This document shows positions 35,778 to 45,574 of a DNA stretch of 45,574 nucleotides, piece after piece. This DNA comes from Candidatus Sumerlaeota bacterium (GTDB lineage Bacteria > Sumerlaeota > Sumerlaeia > SLMS01). Location of the stretch: positions 1 to 45,574 of the forward strand of contig SLOM01000150.1 in assembly GCA_007132505.1 (NCBI GenBank), written 5' to 3'. Made by a program: the position numbers and the translations under genes. Position 1 is the stretch's first letter. Every line of letters begins with the position of its first letter. Below the pieces are notes generated by a model. The model was not told the origin of the DNA and did not search any database. It was given only the letters and a program-made list of their open reading frames with translations.

Positions 35778-37043
35778 TCACCGGTTCGCCGGCGGTTCGA
35801 GGCGCTTTTCCAGTTCGTCGAGGATGGCGGCCGCGATGCGGTCCTTCCCGGCCAGAGGAAGCACGCGGTGAAGGCCGTCGTCACCCAGCAGGACCCCGGT
35901 GTTGTTTTCCGAGGCGAAGCCGGCCTCCGGCCTGTCCACGAGGTTGGCGAAGAGGAGCTGGAAGCCTTTGCGGTTCATCTTCTCGCGGGCGTTCTTCTCG
36001 AGGTCCTCCACCTCCGCCGCAAAGCCTACGAACACGCGGCCCGGCGGACGTGCCCGGTGGCATTCGACGGCCACGTCAGGCGTGCGCACGAGCTCCACCT
36101 GTATGGACGCCGGGGCGCCCTCCTTCTTCGGCTTGCCGGGCAGGGGTTGGGCTGGACGCCAGTCGCTGACGGCGGCGGCGAAGATCGCGGCGTCGGCCTG
36201 GGGGAGGGCCTTAAGCGCAGCGGTGCGCATTTCCTCGGCTGACTCGACGGGCACGAGCTCAATGGCCGGCTCGTCCGGCGGCGGAGCCCCACCTTTCCCA
36301 TGAACAAGAACGACCCGGGCGCCGCGGGCGGCCGCCTCGCGGGACAGAGCGTAGCCCTGCCGGCCCGTGGAGGGGTTGGTAAGGCACCGCACCGCGTCCA
36401 GGAATTCGCGCGTGGCGCCAGCCGTGACAAGGATCGTGCGGCCCGCGAGAGGACCGGCGGGCTGGGCGGCCGTCTCCTGCGCGAGGGCCACAATCGCGCC
36501 CAGGATGTCCTCCACGGCAGCCAGACGGCCGGTGCCCACGTCGTCACACGCCATGCGCCCTTCCGCCGGACCGACGAAGCGATGCCCGCGCTCACGCAGA
36601 GCTGCCACGTTGGCCTGCACCGCCGGGTTGCGCCACATCTCCGGGTTCATGGCGGGTGCGATGAGCAGCGGGCGCTTGTTCCACGCGAGCAGGAGTGTCT
36701 CCAACGCGTTGCGTCCCGTGCCATGGGCGAGCGCGGCGAGCAGATTCGCCGTGGCGGGGGCGAGCACGAAGAAGTCGGCCCACTTGGTGGCCGCAAGGTG
36801 GTCCATCTCGCCCGCATGGGGACTGTCCCAGAGCGAGAGGATGGTGCGCTGGTGGGTGATGGCGTCGAAGGCAGCAGGCCCGACGAGTTTCGGTGCGTGG
36901 TCGGAGAGCACCGCCCGCACCTCCGCACCTGCCTGGCGCAGCTGACTGGCAATGTCGAGCGCGCGGTAGGCGGCGATGGACGAGGAGACCCCGAGGAGGA
37001 TTCGCTTGCCGCGAAGAGAGCCAAGGCCGGGGGTGCTTGTCAT
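35778..37043 (-). CDS. coaBC: Bifunctional PPC decarboxylase / PPC synthetase CoaBC
   Basis: GVSSSIAAY, APATAN, APAMNPEMW, GRMAC...GTGRL, TAGATRE..DAVR.LTN.STG, AAAVSDW, VGFAAE. Confidence 0.96.
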   Translation of the reverse strand: MTSTPGLGSLRGKRILLGVSSSIAAYRALDIASQLRQAGAEVRAVLSDHAPKLVGPAAFDAITHQRTILSLWDSPHAGEMDHLAATKWADFFVLAPATANLLAALAHGTGRNALETLLLAWNKRPLLIAPAMNPEMWRNPAVQANVAALRERGHRFVGPAEGRMACDDVGTGRLAAVEDILGAIVALAQETAAQPAGPLAGRTILVTAGATREFLDAVRCLTNPSTGRQGYALSREAAARGARVVLVHGKGGAPPPDEPAIELVPVESAEEMRTAALKALPQADAAIFAAAVSDWRPAQPLPGKPKKEGAPASIQVELVRTPDVAVECHRARPPGRVFVGFAAEVEDLEKNAREKMNRKGFQLLFANLVDRPEAGFASENNTGVLLGDDGLHRVLPLAGKDRIAAAILDELEKRLEPPANR

Positions 37044-37083
37044 GACAGTCACAGTGCCGGGGGATGCCGGAGCTGGCAGGTGC

Positions 37084-37719
37084 TCACGCCTGCGGGGCGA
37101 GGACGGTGCCGAACCCGTCCCTGACCACCATCCGCGAGGCCCGGAAGCGCTGCGCCTCGATGATGGTCTTCATGTTCTCGATGGTTTCCGGCAGGTCGCG
37201 GTTGACGAGGATGTAGTCGTACTGGTCCGCCATGCGGACCTCGCCGCGTGCGTTTTCGAGGCGGCGCTGGATGGCCTCTTCGCTGTCCTGCCCGCGGCCA
37301 CGGAGGCGCTTCTCGAGTGTGGCCATGGAGGGGGGCAGGATGAAGATGGTCGTGCAGTCCCGGACCATCTTGTGCAGGCGCATGGAGCCCTGCACATCGA
37401 GGTCGAGGATGACGTCCTTGCCTGCTTCGAGCTTTGAGTCCACCTCCTCGCGCGGCGTCCCGTAGTAGTTGCCATGCACCTCGGCGTACTCGTAGAAGCC
37501 GTCCTCCTCGACGAGCTGTTTGAACTGCTCGATGGTGTAGAAGTGGTACTCGCGCCCGTCCTCCTCGCCCTCGCGGGGCTCCCGGGTGGTGGCGCTGATG
37601 GAGTAATCGAGGGAGGAGTCCGCCTCGAGCAGCGCACGGATGATGGTGGACTTGCCGCCACCGCTGGGTGCCGAGACGACAATCAGCATCCCGGTGCGTT
37701 TCAGTTCGAATTCGATCAC
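37084..37719 (-). CDS. gmk: Guanylate kinase
   Basis: VVSAPSGGGKST, SISATTREPREGEEDGREYHF, EYAEVHGNYYGT, FILPPS. Confidence 0.97.
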   Translation of the reverse strand: MIEFELKRTGMLIVVSAPSGGGKSTIIRALLEADSSLDYSISATTREPREGEEDGREYHFYTIEQFKQLVEEDGFYEYAEVHGNYYGTPREEVDSKLEAGKDVILDLDVQGSMRLHKMVRDCTTIFILPPSMATLEKRLRGRGQDSEEAIQRRLENARGEVRMADQYDYILVNRDLPETIENMKTIIEAQRFRASRMVVRDGFGTVLAPQA

Positions 37720-37754
37720 GGCGTGTCTTCCCCCGGTCCCTTCAGGCTGATGAC

Positions 37755-37784
37755 AATGTCGGGACTGGCGGGCGGAGGTGTCAA
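37755..37784 (-). promoter_or_regulatory. Putative sigma70 promoter of gmk(-coaBC)
   Basis: TTGACA-N18-GACATT, 35 nt upstream of the GTG start. Confidence 0.45.
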
Positions 37785-37845
37785 GCGATGCGCCGGGGCG
37801 GCAACCCCCTTGCTCCCGGGCTGGAGCGGACGACAGGGTTCCCCC

Positions 37846-39777
37846 ATGAGCACGAGTGCCCCCGTCCTGACCGCGCTTTCCCTTTCCAAGAGTTACCTCG
37901 AACGCCCCGTGCTGGAGGACGTGTCGTTCTCGATCCACGAGGGGGAACGGGTGGCGCTGCTCGGTGCGAACGGGTCGGGGAAGTCCACACTCCTTGGCAT
38001 CGTGGCGGGCACGGTACGGCCCGAGGGCGGCGAGGTGCGCTTCCGGCGCGAGCTGGCGGTCTCCCGGCTCCTGCAGGAGGACAGCCTGCCTCGGGAGTGG
38101 ACCATCGCCAAGGCGCTGGGCTCCGCCTTCGAGCACGTCCACCGGCTGGAGGAGGAGTTGGACCGGGTGCATCACGAGCTGGAGGCAGCACCGGGTGAGG
38201 AGGCGGGCCGGCTGCTGCAGCGGCAGGGCGAATTGCAGGAGCGCCTGCTTGCCCACGACCCGCACACCATGGAGTCCCGCAAGCAGGAGGCGATGAACGC
38301 CCTCGGCATTCCGCCGGAGGAGCGGGTCCTCGGCGAGCTGTCAGGCGGGGAACTGCGCCGGGTGGACCTCTGCCGCGTGCTGCTCGAGGAGCCGGACCTG
38401 CTGCTTCTCGACGAGCCGACGAACCATCTCGACGCCGAGACCCTCGACTGGCTGGAGGACTTCCTCGCGCGCTTCCGCGGCACCGTTCTCTTCGTCACGC
38501 ACGACCGGTACTTCCTCGACCGGGTGGCGACACGACTGCTCGAGCTTCACCGCGGCCGGGTGAAGTCCTACCCGGGGAACTACAGTGACTATATGGTGGC
38601 CAAGGCCCGGGAGGCGGAACAGGCGGAGCGCGCGGAGGGCACGCGCCGCAACCTTGTCCGGCGCGAGCTCGAATGGCTGCGGCGTCAGCCCAAGGCGCGC
38701 ACCACCAAATCCAAGGCCCGCGTTGACGCGGCAGAGGGGCTGATCTCCGCGGCACCTCCCCCGCCGGACGGAACGATGCAGCTGCTCATTCCCTCCGGTC
38801 CGCGCCTCGGCAAGACATTGCTCGAAGCGGAGGATGTATCCTACGCCATCGGCGGCAGGACACTGGTGCGGGACTTCACCTTCGTCCTCGGCCCGCGGGA
38901 CCGCGTGGGTGTGGTCGGCCGGAATGGACTCGGGAAGACGACTCTTCTTCGCCTGCTCATGAAGGACCTGGAGCCACAGCAGGGTACCATCCACCACGGC
39001 AAGAGCCTCAAATTCGTCTATGCGGATCAGGCGCGAGAGACGCTCGACCCGGACGCGACGGTGCTGGCGGAGGTGGCCGGAGACCTTGAATACGTCACCA
39101 TCGGCGGTCAGCGGATCGGCTTCCGCGGTTGGCTGGAGCGCTTCCTTTTCGATCAGCAGACCGCCAACATGCCCATCCGCCTGCTCAGCGGAGGCGAGCG
39201 CAACCGCGTCCAACTGGCCAGGATGCTGCGCGAGGGCGGGAACGTGGTGGTACTGGACGAGCCGACGAACGACCTGGACCTGCAGACGCTGCGCGTGCTG
39301 GAGGAGGCGCTGGTGCGGTTCGAGGGCTGCGCCTTCGTTGTCTCCCACGACAGGTACTTCCTGGATCGCGTGGCGACGCGCATCATCGGCTTCCGCGGGG
39401 ATGGGCGTATAGACGTCGTGGAGGGCAACTACCGCGATTACCGCGCGTATCTGGCACGTACCGCAGCCGGGGAGGAATCCGCACCGTCAAGGCCGCGCGG
39501 GGACAGGACACGCGAACAGGCCAGCGCCCCCCGGTCCGCCTCCGCCACACGCAAGCTCAGCTACAAGGAGCAACTCGAGTTCGACTCGCTGGAGGACCGT
39601 ATCCTGGAGGCGGAGGGGCGCGTGGAGGAGTTGACGGCGCTGCTGGAGGACCCGGAAACGCACCGGAGCCGCCCGGCGGAGGAGGTGGCGGAACTGGGCC
39701 GCGAGCTGGAGGCAGCAAAGGCAAGCGTGGATGAGCTGTACGAGCGCTGGGCGGAACTGGGCACCCGCGCCCGCTGA
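37846..39777 (+). CDS. ABC-F family ATPase (Uup-like)
   Basis: Two ABC cassettes (GANGSGKST/LSGGE/LLDEPTNHLD and GRNGLGKTT/LSGGE/VLDEPTNDLD), linker ELEWLRRQPKARTTKSKAR, C-terminal RKLSYKEQ...YERWAEL coiled coil, no TM segments. Confidence 0.93.
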   Translation: MSTSAPVLTALSLSKSYLERPVLEDVSFSIHEGERVALLGANGSGKSTLLGIVAGTVRPEGGEVRFRRELAVSRLLQEDSLPREWTIAKALGSAFEHVHRLEEELDRVHHELEAAPGEEAGRLLQRQGELQERLLAHDPHTMESRKQEAMNALGIPPEERVLGELSGGELRRVDLCRVLLEEPDLLLLDEPTNHLDAETLDWLEDFLARFRGTVLFVTHDRYFLDRVATRLLELHRGRVKSYPGNYSDYMVAKAREAEQAERAEGTRRNLVRRELEWLRRQPKARTTKSKARVDAAEGLISAAPPPPDGTMQLLIPSGPRLGKTLLEAEDVSYAIGGRTLVRDFTFVLGPRDRVGVVGRNGLGKTTLLRLLMKDLEPQQGTIHHGKSLKFVYADQARETLDPDATVLAEVAGDLEYVTIGGQRIGFRGWLERFLFDQQTANMPIRLLSGGERNRVQLARMLREGGNVVVLDEPTNDLDLQTLRVLEEALVRFEGCAFVVSHDRYFLDRVATRIIGFRGDGRIDVVEGNYRDYRAYLARTAAGEESAPSRPRGDRTREQASAPRSASATRKLSYKEQLEFDSLEDRILEAEGRVEELTALLEDPETHRSRPAEEVAELGRELEAAKASVDELYERWAELGTRAR

Positions 39778-39783
39778 CCGGCC

Positions 39784-40365
39784 CTAGGCGCCGTCCGGAC
39801 CGGCAGGCAGGCTGGCACGCCGGACGAAGGCAAGGCGGGTAATACCGTATAGACGCTCGTCATCGCATTCCCAGCCGGGAGGGAGCAGCAGATCCTCGCT
39901 CCGATGGACCTCGCAGACGGCGAGCGTGCCTTCCGAGACCAGCGGCGCCAGCTCCTCCGACCCGAGCACCGCCGTGCAGAGCCCGGAGTGGTAGGGTGGC
40001 ATCAGGAGCACCAGATCCACGGGCGTTCGTGGCGGCCGTGCACGGGAGAGCATCGCGGGAGAATGGCCCTCCAGCAGCTCACACTGCTGACCGTATCGGA
40101 GCCGGTCCACGTTCCACTCGAGGCAGCGGGCCGCCTCCGGTTCCGGCTCCACGAAGGTGACCCAGGCAGCGCCGTTGCTGAGCGCTTCCAGTCCGACCGC
40201 TCCGCTCCCGGCGAAGGCGTCCAGCACGATCGCATCCACAATCGAGGGCCGGAGTATATTGAGAAGCGCCTCCCGCGCGCGGCCGCGCAGGGGGCGGGTG
40301 TCCCAGCCCTCCGGCGTGCGGAGTTTCGTGCCGCGGCGCTCGCCCGAGATGATGCGGACCGTCAT
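39784..40365 (-). CDS. rsmD: 16S rRNA m2G966 methyltransferase RsmD
   Basis: RIISGERRGTKL, TRP...REALLNIL, LDAFAGSGAVGLEALSNGA, MPPY (DPPY variant), RLYG. Confidence 0.9.
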   Translation of the reverse strand: MTVRIISGERRGTKLRTPEGWDTRPLRGRAREALLNILRPSIVDAIVLDAFAGSGAVGLEALSNGAAWVTFVEPEPEAARCLEWNVDRLRYGQQCELLEGHSPAMLSRARPPRTPVDLVLLMPPYHSGLCTAVLGSEELAPLVSEGTLAVCEVHRSEDLLLPPGWECDDERLYGITRLAFVRRASLPAGPDGA

Positions 40366-41078
40366 GACTCCCCCTTTGCAACAGGGCAATGAAGCGCCTT
40401 GGCGTCCTCCACCATTAGGCGGCGCAGTGCGAGGGCGAGGGCTTCCGGATCCGTCTCCCCGTCCGTCAGGCTGAACTCCCTCAGGCGGATGGACACTCGC
40501 GAGAAGGGCAGCGGCAGGAAGAGCCTGTCCCACGACCCGAACCGAATGAACCACCGGCAGCCCACGGCGATGCTCACCACTCTGGCGCGCGACGCCCGCC
40601 CGATGCGCACGAAGCCGGGTTTCGGCACTGCTGCCGGGCCGCGCGGTCCGTCCACGGCCAGCAGCCCCACGTGCCCGGACTCGATTTCGTTGACGAGAGC
40701 AAGGGAGCCGGCAACGGCGCGGCTCTTCGAGGAACCCTTCACCACCCGCAGCCCGATGGCCTGAATGGCCGCGTCCAGCACGAGGCCATCACGGCTGGGA
40801 CTTGTCATGACGCAGGCCTCCCGTCCCAGCGCGCGGGCAATGGCCGCGTACGGCATGAGGGCGAAGAACATCCCGTGCCAGCAGAGGACGAGCAGCCGGT
40901 CGTTCTCCCGCAGCAAGCGCCGCAGTTCCTCCGCACCGGCCGGGTCCAAGCGCCACGTGCGCACCAGCAATCTCAGCAGCAGCAGGCCCACGGGAAGCAG
41001 CGCATGGGTGATGAAGGCGAACTTGACGGCCCGCCAGGAGGTGCGCTTCTTGATGGGTGCGGCCGCGGGTGGTGTCAT
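40362..41078 (-). CDS. DUF374 / lysophospholipid acyltransferase-like protein
   Basis: LCWHG, TSPSRDG, VKGSS, AVDGPRGP, SWDRLFLPLPFS. Confidence 0.88.
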   Translation of the reverse strand: MTPPAAAPIKKRTSWRAVKFAFITHALLPVGLLLLRLLVRTWRLDPAGAEELRRLLRENDRLLVLCWHGMFFALMPYAAIARALGREACVMTSPSRDGLVLDAAIQAIGLRVVKGSSKSRAVAGSLALVNEIESGHVGLLAVDGPRGPAAVPKPGFVRIGRASRARVVSIAVGCRWFIRFGSWDRLFLPLPFSRVSIRLREFSLTDGETDPEALALALRRLMVEDAKALHCPVAKGES

Positions 41079-43180
41079 TCGTACAGACGGCGCTCCTCGA
41101 GCCTCGGATCAAGCGGGACAAGCGAGGGGCTCAAGTCCAGGCCGGGCAGGAATCCCGCCTCAAGGGCAATGGGCAGGCGCTTTCGGGGAGTAGGCCGGCG
41201 GAGTTCCTCCCGCACGGATTGGGTGCGCCGCAGCGGCTCCATCAGCGCCAGCACGCGGCCGAGCTGCTCCTCCGTGAGGGGCATCTCGATGCGCCGGCCG
41301 GTGCGCCGGTCCTCGTAGCTGTATGCGCCGTATCGCAGCACGGCCAGACCATCCCGTCCGACTTCCCCCGTCCTGCGGCTTCCATCGAGCAAGTCCGGAT
41401 TCAGGTCCAGCGCATCCTCTGCCGCGAGCTGTGGCCAAGCCAGCAGCTCGCTTCTGTCTATAAGAAGGATTGTGTCGGCCTCCCGGCGCGCCTCGCGGAG
41501 GCTTGCCAGGACACGGTCCCGCCGGCGGTAGTCCGGCCATGCGTTGAGCAGGCGTTCGTAGGCGCGGAGGGCGAGCTCGGGAGTGGGTGCGTTGTCGCCC
41601 TGCCGTTCGAGGTTCCGCGCGGCACGGTGGCGCATGCGCTGCGTACGTCGTTCATTGCCGAGCCGTTCGTATAGATTTGCGGCATCCACATAGCGCGCCT
41701 CGCGCCGGAGTGCCGTGGCCAGACGCCCGCCCCACCATTCCCCCTGTGGAGTGAGGAACCAGTCCGGGTCCACTCCTGCGGCGGCGTGGGGAAACTCCGG
41801 TTCGGGGAAGGGGTCCTGAAACGGCAGGAACAGCAGCCGCGCCAGCCAATCGGTCAGGAACAGGCCCCGGGCGCGCTCGAACGTGGTCGTGCGGCGCATG
41901 CGCGCCTCCTCCGCAGTAAGGGAGCGCTCGAGCACCAGGGGATCGCGTGCATGGAGGATATACCCCCACCAGCGCCTGTTGACCGCGCGGTTGGCCTCGC
42001 GCAAGGCGGGGACGGGATCATATTCGGGCCGCTGAAGGATGTCCGCGGCACGTTCCGGCCAGCCGCCCCGGGCCAGTCGGCCCTCCTCAAGCCTCTGCAG
42101 GTAGGCTGCCGCGAGGGAGAGATTTCCTTCCGCCTGCGCCACGCCCGCCTCCGCTGCCAGCACGGCCGGAAGCACCGGCGAGCCGGGATGGTTGCGCTGG
42201 AAGTCCGCCGCGGCCCGCCGGAAGGGAGGCAGATCGTCCGCGTATTCACGCAGGATCAGGTGACGCACGATGTCCCGGTAGGCGCCGAACTCCGCGGTGG
42301 AACCGAAGGTCTCAGCTCCCTCGGCGACTTCCAGCGAGCGCGCCCGGAGTTCCCTTGCCGCGGCGAACCGGCGGAGTGCGTCCCGGTGACCGTCGCGCCG
42401 GATCCTGTCCCAATCCTGGAGCTGGCGTTCGCGCTCGTACCAAAAGACCGCCGCCCAATCCCGGCCCTGACCAGCCGCCCGCTGCGCATTCTGCCGCGCC
42501 TGCAGGGCCGAAGTCCGCGTGCGCTGGCCCGGCGAAGCATCGAGCACGCTGCGGGCCCTGTCCCGAGAAGGTCCTCCTGCCTCCACGGCAGCCGCCTCGC
42601 GGGCCAGGAAGAGCTCCCTGCGTTGCTCCGGGGTAAGGTACTGACGGCCGACGATGAGGTGTTCCGCCGCGTCGAAGGGCAGCGACAACAGGGGAAATAT
42701 CTGTCCCTGCGCGAGCGAGGTGACCGGGTTCAGCACGGCGTTGACGTTTCGCTGGAGCGACGCATACCGCCGGTCGGCCCGTGCTTCGAGGAAGCGCTGC
42801 CGGGGCTCCTCGCGCCGCAACATCTCCTCAAGGTTGCGCGTGACCTGGCTTCGCCGATAGCCGGAGAGGGTGTCGCGCTTTTCACGCACGGTGGGGAGCG
42901 GCCTGTCCACCGAGACGGAGAGCGTGGCAATGGCGCTCGAGATGGGAAGGGGAACGGTCCGCGCCGTGCGGGCCGCGTCCTCCAGGTCGCGGCGCTCCTC
43001 CGCCACATCGCGAACGGCCTCGGCATCGCCAAGGATGGCGGCCCGGAGCGCGCGCTGGACCTGCTGCTCGGTGCGGGTGAGCGCCGGCTCCTCCGGCTCC
43101 GCAACTACCGCCGTATAGACGAAGGGGGCCATCAGCAACAGCAACAGAAGCGTCGTGGGGACAGGACCAGCACGCATCAT
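41075..43180 (-). CDS. Large exported alpha-helical (TPR-like) hypothetical protein
   Basis: Signal peptide TTLLLLLLMAPFVYTAVVA, Ala/Arg-rich helical repeats (AAAYLQRL, AANLYERL, ALRAYERLL), 4-nt overlaps with both neighbours. Confidence 0.8.
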   Translation of the reverse strand: MMRAGPVPTTLLLLLLMAPFVYTAVVAEPEEPALTRTEQQVQRALRAAILGDAEAVRDVAEERRDLEDAARTARTVPLPISSAIATLSVSVDRPLPTVREKRDTLSGYRRSQVTRNLEEMLRREEPRQRFLEARADRRYASLQRNVNAVLNPVTSLAQGQIFPLLSLPFDAAEHLIVGRQYLTPEQRRELFLAREAAAVEAGGPSRDRARSVLDASPGQRTRTSALQARQNAQRAAGQGRDWAAVFWYERERQLQDWDRIRRDGHRDALRRFAAARELRARSLEVAEGAETFGSTAEFGAYRDIVRHLILREYADDLPPFRRAAADFQRNHPGSPVLPAVLAAEAGVAQAEGNLSLAAAYLQRLEEGRLARGGWPERAADILQRPEYDPVPALREANRAVNRRWWGYILHARDPLVLERSLTAEEARMRRTTTFERARGLFLTDWLARLLFLPFQDPFPEPEFPHAAAGVDPDWFLTPQGEWWGGRLATALRREARYVDAANLYERLGNERRTQRMRHRAARNLERQGDNAPTPELALRAYERLLNAWPDYRRRDRVLASLREARREADTILLIDRSELLAWPQLAAEDALDLNPDLLDGSRRTGEVGRDGLAVLRYGAYSYEDRRTGRRIEMPLTEEQLGRVLALMEPLRRTQSVREELRRPTPRKRLPIALEAGFLPGLDLSPSLVPLDPRLEERRLYE

Positions 43181-43806
43181 CCGCCCTCCCCGCCCCGGGT
43201 CTCCCGGATCAGCCGGGCGTCATCCTCCGAGAGGAATCCCGCCTGGACCATCTCCTCAAGTTCAAAATCGGACTTTGCAGCAAGGGGGGCGAGCCGGCGG
43301 GGCAGGCTCTTCTCCAGACTGGCGGGCGCCTTCGGAGGGGTACTCTCCTCTGCGGCTTTCGTGCGGGGTGATGGTTGCTGCTTCTGCTCCGGCGCGGCGG
43401 GTTCTTGTCCGGGGGCCTGCTGCGCCTCCGCTTCCTTTTCCCGGCGTGCTGTGGCTTCCATCTCTGCCAGTTGGAGGGCGGCTTCCGCCTTGGGGGGGAG
43501 CTTCCGTGCCGCTTCCTGGGCCTCGGTGCGCTCAAGGTATTGCTTGGTCATGGCGCGGCGGACTGCCTTCAGCTCCTCCTCGGTGAGCTGGCCGGAGGTG
43601 CGCAGCTTGTCGAGGTCGCTCGGGGAGATGCCAAAGGGGAGTTCGATCCTCTCCGTGCGGCGGGAGAAGTAGTGACGGAGTACGCGCGCCACCACGAAGA
43701 GGAGAATGACCGCCACCGCAACGGCGATGGCATAGATCATCAGCGTCTGTACATCCTCGTGAACGAGGAAGGTGGTGAACGCCAGGGCGCCGGCGGAAGG
43801 ATTCAC
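43177..43806 (-). CDS. Single-pass membrane protein with two SHOCT-like motifs
   Basis: TM IYAIAVAVAVILLFVVA followed by RVLRHYFSRR. DLDKLRTSGQLTEEELKAVR and ELEEMVQAGFLSEDDARLIR. Confidence 0.75.
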   Translation of the reverse strand: MNPSAGALAFTTFLVHEDVQTLMIYAIAVAVAVILLFVVARVLRHYFSRRTERIELPFGISPSDLDKLRTSGQLTEEELKAVRRAMTKQYLERTEAQEAARKLPPKAEAALQLAEMEATARREKEAEAQQAPGQEPAAPEQKQQPSPRTKAAEESTPPKAPASLEKSLPRRLAPLAAKSDFELEEMVQAGFLSEDDARLIRETRGGEGG

Positions 43807-43816
43807 CGGAAGGGCC

Positions 43817-45574
43817 TCAGGAAACGAAATACTTCTCCACCATTTCGGTGGCGAGTTCAGGCGTGATTTCGCTGCCGCCGAGCTCCTTCAGCGTGAGGAG
43901 CTGATTGAAGGCACCCTTGAGCTCACGCACGTTCGTGGCAAGCCGTTCCGCGAGCACTTCAAGCACCTCCTCGTCCAGTTCCACGCCGTGGCGCTTGGCC
44001 TCCTTGCCGAGGATGGCCAGCCGGGTTTCGAAATCGGGTGACTGTATATCCACGATGACACCCTGGCCGAAGCGGGACCGCAGCCGCATGTCAAGGTGGG
44101 CGATGTCCTTCGGGGGCCTGTCCGAGCTGACCACAATCTGGCGCCGCGCCTGGAAGAGCATGTTGAAGATGTGGAAGAACTCCTCCTGACTGCGTTCCTT
44201 TCCAGCGAGGAACTGCACGTCGTCCAGCAGGAGGACGTCCGCTTTGCGGTACTTGTTGCGGAAGGCGGTTGTCTTGTTCGTCTCGATGGCCTCCACCAGT
44301 TCCGTGGTGAAGTACTCGGTGCTTCCATAGACGATCCGGGTCTTGGGCTTCTGCTTGAGAAGCTCGTTGGCGATCGCATGCAGCAGGTGGGTCTTGCCGA
44401 GGCCCACGTCCGAGTAGAGGAAGAGCGGATTGCGGGCGGAGCCGGGCTGGCGGGCGACGGCGCGTGCCGTTGCGTAGGCGAAGTTGTTCTTCGAGCCCAC
44501 GACGAAGGAGTCGAAGTCGTACTCCTCCAGGATGCCAAGGCCCGGGGAATCCTCGGTACTTGCCGCGCGGGCGGCGGTAGCGGAGGCCACGGCGGCCCCG
44601 GCCGGAGAGGCGTCCAGCAGGTCCTCCAGCTCACGGTACTCGGCAAGGGCTTCGTCCTTCTTGCCCATGTTGTCGAGCAGCCGCGCCTTGGCGCGCCGGG
44701 CACGTACATGGCGGGAATCCTCGGCAAGCACCCCGTCCAGCAGCTTGAGGGCCTTCTCGTTCTTCTTCTTTCCGGTGAGGAGGCCTGCGAGTTCCACGGT
44801 TTCCGTCAGCGCCTCGTCGTGCCTTCCCTGGGACTCGAGTTCCGTTATGAGGAGTTGGCGCGGCTCGGGCGCCTCGGGCTTGAGGGCGGCTGCCTCGCGA
44901 AGCGCGGCCAGCACACCGGCCTGGTCGCCCTCCTCCTGCAGGACGGCGGCGAGCCGGCGCAGCTCTGCCATGGCGTCCTCGGTCCGCCCGGCCCTCCGCA
45001 TCAGGGCGACGATGTGCCGCCGGGCCTCATGATTGCCGGGCTCCTCCTCCAGCACCTCGCGCAGAATCTCGACAGCCTGATCCGGCCGGCCCGCCTCCTC
45101 GTGCACGGTGGCCATTCTGCGCAGGAGCTGGTGTGCCTCGTCCTCCCGTCCCATGTCGCGGAGCAGGGCGACGTGGGCGCGGTTGACCTTCTCGTTGCCG
45201 GGGTCCAAGGCGTGCATTTCCTCGAACGCGGCCGCGGCGTCCTCCAGTTTCCGTGCCTTCTGGAGATGCTTGGCCAGGGCGAGGTACTGATCCATCGCCT
45301 CGGGCAGCCGGCCGGCATCCTGCAGGGCGCCGGTCAGCCCGGCCCGCAGCGGGATGCTCTCCGGTGCCTGCTTCACGGCCTCTTCGTATAGACGGAGGAC
45401 CTCTTCCTTGTCTCCGCGTTCCTCGTGCAGTTCGATGACCGCCTGCCATTCGGCCACGGCCTCCTCGCTGCGCCCGGCGGTCCGGTAGAGCGCCGCGAGG
45501 GCCTTGCGGAAGTCCGGCAGGCGGGCGTTCGTCTCGATCCAGCCCCGGAGCAGCCGGATCTTCTTCTCCGTCTC
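43817..45574 (-). CDS. TPR-repeat protein fused to a C-terminal DnaA-type AAA+ domain, lacking DnaA domain IV (5' end lies beyond the window)
   Basis: Frame is open to base 45574. TPR helices, then an Ala-rich linker, then YDFDSFVVGSKN, NPLFLYSDVGLGKTHLLHAI, LLLDDVQFL, KERSQEEFFH, SSDRPP, RLRSRF, NVRELKGA, and a stop about 30 aa later. Confidence 0.92.
   Translation of the reverse strand, partial: ETEKKIRLLRGWIETNARLPDFRKALAALYRTAGRSEEAVAEWQAVIELHEERGDKEEVLRLYEEAVKQAPESIPLRAGLTGALQDAGRLPEAMDQYLALAKHLQKARKLEDAAAAFEEMHALDPGNEKVNRAHVALLRDMGREDEAHQLLRRMATVHEEAGRPDQAVEILREVLEEEPGNHEARRHIVALMRRAGRTEDAMAELRRLAAVLQEEGDQAGVLAALREAAALKPEAPEPRQLLITELESQGRHDEALTETVELAGLLTGKKKNEKALKLLDGVLAEDSRHVRARRAKARLLDNMGKKDEALAEYRELEDLLDASPAGAAVASATAARAASTEDSPGLGILEEYDFDSFVVGSKNNFAYATARAVARQPGSARNPLFLYSDVGLGKTHLLHAIANELLKQKPKTRIVYGSTEYFTTELVEAIETNKTTAFRNKYRKADVLLLDDVQFLAGKERSQEEFFHIFNMLFQARRQIVVSSDRPPKDIAHLDMRLRSRFGQGVIVDIQSPDFETRLAILGKEAKRHGVELDEEVLEVLAERLATNVRELKGAFNQLLTLKELGGSEITPELATEMVEKYFVS

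Follow-up and report, generated by a model that had tools for sequence, protein, structure and literature searches.

The window analysed here, one complete contig of 45,574 nt (SLOM01000150.1, C277 in our numbering) from the 3.46-Mb genome of a Candidatus Sumerlaeota bacterium (303 contigs, estimated completeness 91.7%), carries part of the gene of a giant paralogue of DnaA. The protein, here named TPR-DnaA, joins about 1,000 aa of tetratricopeptide repeats (TPRs) to a DnaA-type AAA+ module that has retained the residues for ATP binding, oligomerisation and contact with single-stranded DNA (ssDNA). With somewhat less than even confidence, we regard it as an ATP-dependent scaffold or regulator of initiation that binds ssDNA and that a SHOCT-like protein, encoded by the adjoining gene, may hold at the membrane. 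TPR-DnaA heads an array of five closely packed minus-strand genes, encoding in order TPR-DnaA, the membrane protein, an exported protein, a DUF374 protein and RsmD. An earlier reading of the same DNA (the original prediction) took this array for a candidate envelope-spanning system; comparison with related genomes supports it in part.

TPR-DnaA, a giant paralogue of DnaA

Contig C4 of the same genome (G000) opens with the last 121 nt of the window (45454-45574) and continues the TPR-DnaA gene on its minus strand (locus L064:1-2473), where the first 824 residues are encoded; the gene is therefore split by the assembly alone. The full-length protein (P0001) has 1,369 aa and is composed of a zinc-ribbon N-terminus of the DnaG-primase type, the TPRs and, at the C-terminal end, the AAA+ module of DnaA domain III. 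Neither a signal peptide nor a membrane segment is predicted in it. PF00308 (Bac_DnaA) matches at 2.1e-65 over model positions 3-162 of 162, and the last 277 residues match Bacillus subtilis DnaA (8btg) at 1.1e-75, in an alignment that ends at residue 343 of 8btg. TIGR00362, the model of complete DnaA, aligns over positions 86-338 of 437 only and scores 327.1 bits, below its cut-off of 343.9. Because positions 1-85 and 339-437 are unmatched, DnaA domains I and IV must be considered missing. In Pfam scans PF08299 (domain IV) did not match TPR-DnaA, which stops 76 aa past PF00308. The true dnaA of the genome, with PF00308 and PF08299, is located on contig C227 and contains the sole PF08299 match of the genome.

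The zinc ribbon is preserved in part of the family. Among 34 orthologues scanned (of the 50 in alignment A3, described below), PF01807 (Zn_ribbon_DnaG, zf-CHC2) matches residues ~6-107 of nine, three of them above the cut-off. The complete C-x-H...C-x4-C signature is found in 49 of 118 aligned N-termini, and the first CP motif alone is kept in 61 of the 118, including the protein of the window. As judged from this pattern, the zinc ribbon appears to be an ancestral feature that has degenerated in the window's protein.

Conservation of the AAA+ module

Alignment A3 comprises 50 orthologues of 1,354-1,382 aa picked from 120 listed, with forms of 1,645-2,152 aa and proteins containing T2SSE_N excluded. 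G1175, G1177, K1178 and T1179 of Walker A, D1235 and D1236 of Walker B, S1268-P1272 of box VII as well as R1281, R1285 and R1334 are invariant. Passages of a study on B. subtilis DnaA assign functions to several equivalent residues (PMC10721633): R264 is the arginine finger required for oligomerisation, I190 is required for binding of ssDNA, K222 and E223 contact the phosphate backbone, and base capture requires N187, I190, I193, R202 and E228. These residues were transferred to TPR-DnaA by the gap-free alignment to 8btg. R264 and E228 correspond to R1285 and E1249, both invariant among the 50 orthologues, and K222, E223, R202 and I193 to K1243, E1244, R1223 and I1214, each at least 90% conserved. 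I190 is V1211 in the protein of the window; the position of N187 is discussed below. Given that the arginine finger and the residues for ATP binding and ssDNA contact vary little or not at all, we infer that TPR-DnaA binds ATP, oligomerises and binds ssDNA. We conclude that the module is constrained in the same way as that of true DnaA.

A maximum-likelihood tree of 48 AAA+ domains points in the same direction. It contains 21 TPR-DnaA domains (20 from the 39 loci treated below, and the window), 21 true DnaA domains from the same or related genomes and six from proteins of the T2SSE_N architecture, which form three groups with support of at least 100/98 each. The TPR-DnaA copies fall together at 100/99, and their branch lengths resemble those of true DnaA.

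Occurrence of TPR-DnaA and related proteins

A long orthologue of TPR-DnaA was found in 39 of 40 relatives across the class, with open frames of 1,279-2,164 aa on complete contigs; from the remaining genome, G037, this search recovered true DnaA alone. At E<=1e-10, 64 of 75 genomes of this phylum contain a match to the N-terminal 420 aa. When 1.84 billion representatives were searched exhaustively with the 277-aa module, 21,495 proteins were obtained at E<=0.001; the TPR-DnaA family ranks on top, and ordinary DnaAs begin at ~1e-75 and 49-54% identity. A literature search of main texts and listings found no paper in which Sumerlaeota are connected with DnaA or a TPR-DnaA paralogue is reported, and the words DnaA, TPR and tetratricopeptide are absent from the main text of PMC8092238.

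Two other uncharacterised architectures with DnaA-type AAA+ modules appeared high in the list from this search, among P0069, P0075, P0089, P0094, P0098, P0104 and P0121-P0125. The first, of ~1,870-1,990 aa, has the module at residues ~180-420 together with PF05157 (T2SSE_N) and forms its own group in the tree; a second matched stretch was present in both of the ~1,900-aa PF05157 proteins checked (P0089, P0098). Proteins of the other architecture have 570-700 aa and two DnaA-type stretches. Many Sumerlaeota genomes moreover encode a second giant TPR protein, in frames of ~2,950-3,130 aa, the N-terminus of which matches the zinc-ribbon-like region of TPR-DnaA (for example G040:C78:8879-9667, G064:C3:97988-98416 and G063:C302:22148-22486). 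In two genomes consisting of a single contig (C1), TPR-DnaA is found at 2.40 Mb and dnaA at 1.06 Mb of 3.29 Mb (G036), and at 4.61 Mb and 1.50 Mb of 6.00 Mb (G033). If dnaA marks the origin, TPR-DnaA is located roughly opposite on the chromosome, which in two genomes may be due to chance.

Comparison with known AAA+ proteins

DnaA serves as the initiator throughout the bacteria, and the regulators known to act on it are small proteins, Hda among them. TPR-DnaA resembles DnaA in its whole domain III and in keeping Walker A and B, box VII, the arginine finger, sensor II and, with the substitution of N187, the ssDNA-contact residues. It differs from DnaA by the lack of domain IV, which binds DnaA boxes, and of domains I and II, by its zinc-ribbon-like N-terminus and TPRs, and by its coexistence with a separate true dnaA. 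With Hda and HdaA it shares the nature of a DnaA-related AAA+ protein devoid of the DNA-binding domain IV. Hda acts on DnaA by AAA+ to AAA+ contact, and a contact of this kind between TPR-DnaA and DnaA is the working model preferred here. However, the similarity to Hda is far weaker than that to DnaA (2e-12 to Hda 5x06; TIGR03420 102.1 against a cut-off of 194.8), and Hda is a short, AAA+-only protein, whereas TPR-DnaA is six times larger.

The DnaC and DnaI loaders are AAA+ proteins of the initiator clade that oligomerise on ssDNA and have no domain for the recognition of double-stranded DNA. The same can be said of the clade and domain content of TPR-DnaA, but PF01695, which represents these loaders (IstB_IS21 family), matches it weakly (1.1e-6). 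A 315-aa IstB/DnaC-like AAA+ frame (C227:14689-15147, plus strand; PF01695 2.9e-17) is situated ~3 kb from dnaA (C227:10534-11475, minus strand) and seems to fill the role of helicase loader, so that this role was rejected for TPR-DnaA as unnecessary. DciA (PF05258) was not found in this 91.7%-complete genome. An NTPase switch joined to a long TPR scaffold is also known from STAND NTPases such as MalT and AfsR-like proteins; unlike these, TPR-DnaA has a DnaA-type ATPase in C-terminal position, and Pfam scans revealed no NB-ARC or NACHT match.

The membrane protein with SHOCT-like motifs

The second gene of the array encodes a protein of 209 aa, for which 26 of 30 available copies were aligned (A2; L049, L053, L055 and L056 were excluded because of uncertain starts). 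The sequences begin with an unconserved stub, ~21 aa long in the window, and continue through a single membrane helix and a K/R stretch to a first conserved motif (FG...L..L...G.LTEEE.K.VR), which a P/E/A-rich linker of varying length separates from a second one (ELE.L..AGFLS.ED). E78 and G190 are invariant in the 26 orthologues. PF09851 (SHOCT) matches 10 of them (best 6.6e-9) and PF20612 five (best 3.7e-10). The copy of the window matches neither family at E<=1, hence its likeness to SHOCT rests on the orthologues; the sole Pfam or NCBIfam match of the protein itself is a weak one to VirB10_subf (19.7 bits, cut-off 400). As the K/R residues come after the membrane helix, the positive-inside rule predicts a single-pass protein with the N-terminus outside, the C-terminus inside and a cytoplasmic tail that would carry both motifs. 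In the passages on its possible role, the describers of SHOCT suggest nucleic acid or other proteins as what the domain binds (PMC3581485). Complex predictions of TPR-DnaA residues 1-420 and 955-1369 with the tail (residues 46-209) returned 0.00 in both runs, a score that amounts to no verdict by the tool.

The exported protein

Signal peptides of the Sec type are predicted at the start of the 701-aa protein and of all 21 orthologues adjoining the membrane-protein gene, and most of these proteins end in RLYE. No family of Pfam or NCBIfam matched the 701-aa protein. An AlphaFold2 model was calculated from 19 sequences, those of the window and 18 of the 21 orthologues (L034, with an over-long start, and the truncated L044 and L054 were dropped). 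It reached a pLDDT of 82.1 (79.6 for the C-terminal part modelled alone) and consists of a TPR-like alpha-solenoid, a small beta domain with a long helix, and a Pro-rich tail (Table 1). The tail is of low confidence in the model and is predicted to be disordered, yet seven of its residues (P663, P670, P679, G680, P685, P689 and Y700) are invariant among 20 orthologues; it looks like a short docking motif for some partner.

Structural searches did not place the protein in a known group. Foldseek against the PDB gave nothing at E<=0.001 for the complete model, and the best hits of a wide VIA-align search were generic TPR proteins (Z 9.3), under the noise level of the tool for helical repeats. 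No fold could be assigned to the C-terminal domain alone (best VIA-align Z 4.7, to PipX; best Foldseek E 0.36), and the best score in the ESM Atlas, 0.80 to TPR clusters, provides a lead only. A word-indexed search with a profile of the protein, with six matches among 8,000 scored candidates, was uninformative on the range of the family. The genome encodes Omp85 and LpxC, which means that the cell is diderm and that a periplasm exists into which the protein can be exported. As far as can be predicted, then, the first three proteins of the array would occupy the cytoplasm, the inner membrane and the periplasm, as had been proposed.

Gene order in related genomes

Gene order was compared at 39 TPR-DnaA loci of relatives belonging to 14 families (f1 to f14), which were searched with profiles built iteratively from the proteins of the window. 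The membrane-protein gene lies directly downstream of TPR-DnaA in 29 of the 39 loci and in nine families (f1 9/10, f2 1/1, f3 10/11, f4 2/2, f5 2/2, f8 1/1, f10 1/1, f12 2/2, f14 1/1). The exported protein comes next in 21 loci, all in f1, f3 and f4 and thus within one order, and is encoded elsewhere in the genome in the remaining eleven families. DUF374 and rsmD follow in 11 loci, of f1 and f4 only. Start codons that permit a 4-nt overlap occur between the membrane-protein and exported-protein genes in 17 of 21 loci, between DUF374 and rsmD in 9 of 11, between the exported-protein gene and DUF374 in 3 of 11, and between TPR-DnaA and the membrane-protein gene in 5 of 29; a relative of the same genus also has the membrane-protein GTG at +10. 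Tight packing by itself is ordinary for an operon; its conservation exceeds chance. The coupling of the membrane and exported proteins runs throughout the one order.

The array can therefore be divided into three units, namely TPR-DnaA, the pair of membrane and exported proteins, and the DUF374-rsmD pair. The last unit can be set aside. The 238-aa DUF374 protein (PF04028 1.9e-14; 53.5 bits, cut-off 26.8), which we take to be acyltransferase-like, and RsmD (TIGR00095 121.6 bits, cut-off 117.5; PF03602 1.5e-36) are encoded side by side on contigs other than that of TPR-DnaA in 11 of 11 f3 genomes, and hence form an independent pair; in f5, f7 and f13 the two genes are apart from each other. They are housekeeping passengers outside any core set, and the proposal that the five genes make up one system was not borne out.

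Whether the other three genes belong together is less easily decided. One alternative, which we consider somewhat unlikely, holds that no functional link exists: the synteny of unrelated, co-transcribed core genes would have been inherited, and TPR-DnaA would work alone in the cytoplasm. Upstream of TPR-DnaA, on C4 and on the same strand, are found leuS, a PDZ-radical-SAM DUF512 gene, a 712-aa frame without a Pfam match and a 719-aa frame with a weak match to Peptidase_S55. The conservation of leuS and the radical-SAM gene as neighbours is confined to the genus, and the downstream neighbours vary from family to family. In distant or rearranged genomes (nine loci) the genes that flank the one for the exported protein vary between loci, and in the distant families they are mutually unrelated. 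All the genes are near-universal in the class and hence independent of each other's neighbourhood. These observations favour inherited synteny. Against it speaks the adjacency of TPR-DnaA and the membrane protein across nine families despite an identity of the membrane protein of 18-37% outside the genus. The overlap between the membrane-protein and exported-protein genes is kept as well, and in G022 these two genes are still together on a contig separate from that of TPR-DnaA. In G003 both were likewise detected away from TPR-DnaA, on C296, but the assembly is broken there, and a third contig (C228) contains the 3' part of the exported-protein gene. In several distant families (L036, L052 and L057, of f5, f11 and f6) the genes immediately upstream of TPR-DnaA start like panB and nadC, to judge by eye from their first residues.

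It is unlikely that a trans-envelope complex of TPR-DnaA, the SHOCT-like membrane protein and the exported protein reports the state of the envelope or its lipids to the initiator-like ATPase for the control of cell cycle or polarity, as the original prediction had suggested. The predicted compartments in a diderm cell, the position of the membrane protein next to TPR-DnaA and its coupling to the exported protein fit such a complex, and the invariant tail might be the site of docking. The membrane protein is also the only one whose links to its two neighbours are both conserved, as a trans-envelope arrangement requires. However, its extracytoplasmic part of ~21 unconserved residues offers no obvious periplasmic contact, whereas generic trans-envelope complexes of the Tol-Pal or TonB type have, on the inner-membrane component, a conserved periplasmic domain by which the partner in the periplasm is reached. 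The exported protein is linked in one order only, the three genes lie scattered in five families (see below), and DUF374 and rsmD stand outside the set. What remains of the envelope-spanning module is the compartments, the link of TPR-DnaA to the membrane protein and, within one order, the coupling to the exported protein. The neighbours differ between genomes in some families but not in most of the loci, so that the variability which the original prediction had named as counting against it was found in part.

The second option considered originally, an ATPase derived from DnaA whose mechanical work drives an envelope machine, is very improbable. The neighbourhood with membrane and exported proteins is all that speaks for it. 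Such a motor would have no need of conserved residues for ssDNA contact and base capture, proteins of the initiator clade of AAA+ are known as ATP-dependent assembly switches and not as translocases, and nothing in the membrane partner is multi-pass or resembles a channel.

Proposed role of TPR-DnaA

The conservation of the DNA-contact residues suggests that TPR-DnaA acts on DNA or on DnaA rather than as an engine of the envelope. According to the model of a scaffold or regulator that we prefer, TPR-DnaA would bind ATP and unwound DNA and would form oligomers of its own or add to the end of a DnaA filament. It would then regulate or scaffold the initiation of replication or the handling of the chromosome and would not be a motor. 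The membrane protein, with its two SHOCT-like motifs, predicted to be cytoplasmic, on a flexible linker, may tether TPR-DnaA to the inner membrane, and in one order the exported TPR-like partner may join the membrane protein. The chances are slim for a bolder version, in which TPR-DnaA is a second, membrane-tethered initiator-like ATPase of Sumerlaeota that co-assembles with DnaA on unwound origin DNA, is anchored at the inner membrane by the SHOCT-like protein and, in one order, is coupled to the periplasmic TPR protein, such that initiation or origin anchoring would be wired to the state of the envelope.

Several observations weigh against the preferred model. In the protein of the window the base-capture residue N187 is replaced by T1208. 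Its N-terminus reads CPLC...FRSDPPDMP, so that with the loss of the second Cys pair the zinc site is degenerate in the window's own family, and no PF01807 match of P0001 is present among the matches listed (25 of 26 families). The tree contains no outgroup and says nothing on the origin of the paralogue. In the passages cited above, the describers of SHOCT leave its function open, and their own test failed to support oligomerisation (PMC3581485).

The genomic evidence for tethering has its own weaknesses. All three core genes are unlinked in f6, f7, f9, f11 and f13, five of the 14 families; in the single contig of G036, for example, they are scattered at 2.40 (TPR-DnaA), 0.57 and 1.90 Mb. Related genomes inherit their gene order, so that independent events are fewer than the locus counts suggest. 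Co-occurrence, which the original prediction had named as a check, was observed: profile searches of whole genomes found the exported protein in 38 of 41 genomes, mostly once, and the membrane protein in 41 of 41, with weak and partial matches in distant genomes. All three core genes are single-copy and near-universal, and their co-occurrence therefore has no power to discriminate between the readings. Expression data give a weak hint. In a metatranscriptome library (X9) three short contigs, each one letter off the window, correspond to 43401-43655, 43816-44036 and 45242-45509; none bridges a gene junction, carry-over of DNA is possible, and parts of the array without X9 cover prove nothing.

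Layout and context of the array

The five genes are arranged as had been described from the sequence, at exactly the coordinates given then, and the frames and the domain matches of TPR-DnaA, DUF374 and RsmD agree with the gene list (Table 1). The TGA stop codon of TPR-DnaA is followed after 10 nt by the GTG start of the membrane-protein gene; the three other junctions are ATGA overlaps at 43177-43180, 41075-41078 and 40362-40365. G-rich stretches resembling Shine-Dalgarno sequences precede the second and the fourth junction. A promoter and terminator scan revealed no terminator-like site on the minus strand inside the array and a single promoter-like site, within the 701-aa gene, where 0.3 are expected by chance, and was in this respect uninformative. 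The array is probably a single transcription unit built from three evolutionary units.

Table 1. Positions of genes, domains and motifs of the array in the window
Feature	Position	Strand	Description
TPR-DnaA fragment	43817-45574	-	585 aa, 5' end open at contig end
TPR-DnaA, TPR part	44528-45574	-	last ~350 TPR residues; TPR_19 (2.1e-25), TPR_14 and other TPR families, fragment residues 25-317
TPR-DnaA, DnaA domain-III AAA+ core	44048-44527	-	PF00308; Walker A GLGKT, Walker B DD, box VII SDRPP, arginine finger in RLRSRF
TPR-DnaA, AAA+ lid (IIIb)	43817-44047	-	sensor-II NVREL motif, then stop codon; no domain IV after it
Spacer, TPR-DnaA stop to membrane-protein GTG	43807-43816		10 nt
Membrane protein	43177-43806	-	209 aa, GTG start
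Membrane helix of 209-aa protein	43678-43743	-	residues ~22-43
SHOCT-like motif 1	43528-43635	-	residues 58-93
SHOCT-like motif 2	43201-43272	-	residues 179-202
Exported protein	41075-43180	-	701 aa
Signal peptide of exported protein	43100-43180	-	residues 1-27
TPR-like alpha-solenoid of exported protein	residues 31-569		AlphaFold2 model
Small beta domain and long helix of exported protein	41198-41473	-	residues 570-661, AlphaFold2 model
Pro-rich tail of exported protein	41078-41197	-	residues 662-701, ending in RLYE
DUF374 protein	40362-41078	-	238 aa
rsmD (16S rRNA m2G966 methyltransferase)	39784-40365	-	193 aa counted from ATG at 40365; last gene of the array

With rsmD the array comes to its end, since the gene that follows is located on the plus strand and converges on it, its frame ending at 39777. 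Judged by eye from its translation, the plus-strand frame 37474-39777 reads like a two-cassette ABC-F ATPase, and minus-strand frames within 35778-39777 resemble guanylate kinase and CoaBC. PADLOC models matched none of P0001 and the 209-aa, 701-aa and 238-aa proteins (0 families), and the idea of an anti-phage defence system was dropped for this reason. A soda-lake metagenome contains 0.93 of the sampled words of the window, and salt-lake and lake-water metagenomes contain parts of it.

Significance

The five genes are a composite, and DUF374 and rsmD should be left out of future analyses. What emerges from the array is a phylum-wide giant paralogue of DnaA that, to judge from its residues, is under strong purifying selection and appears to have kept the surfaces for ATP, oligomerisation and ssDNA while it lost origin recognition. 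If it works as the preferred model has it, TPR-DnaA would stand for a class not described before among initiation regulators or chromosome scaffolds. The link to the SHOCT-like protein, if real, would provide the first concrete partner for the SHOCT domain and, from the membrane to the initiator, a route by way of protein rather than lipid.

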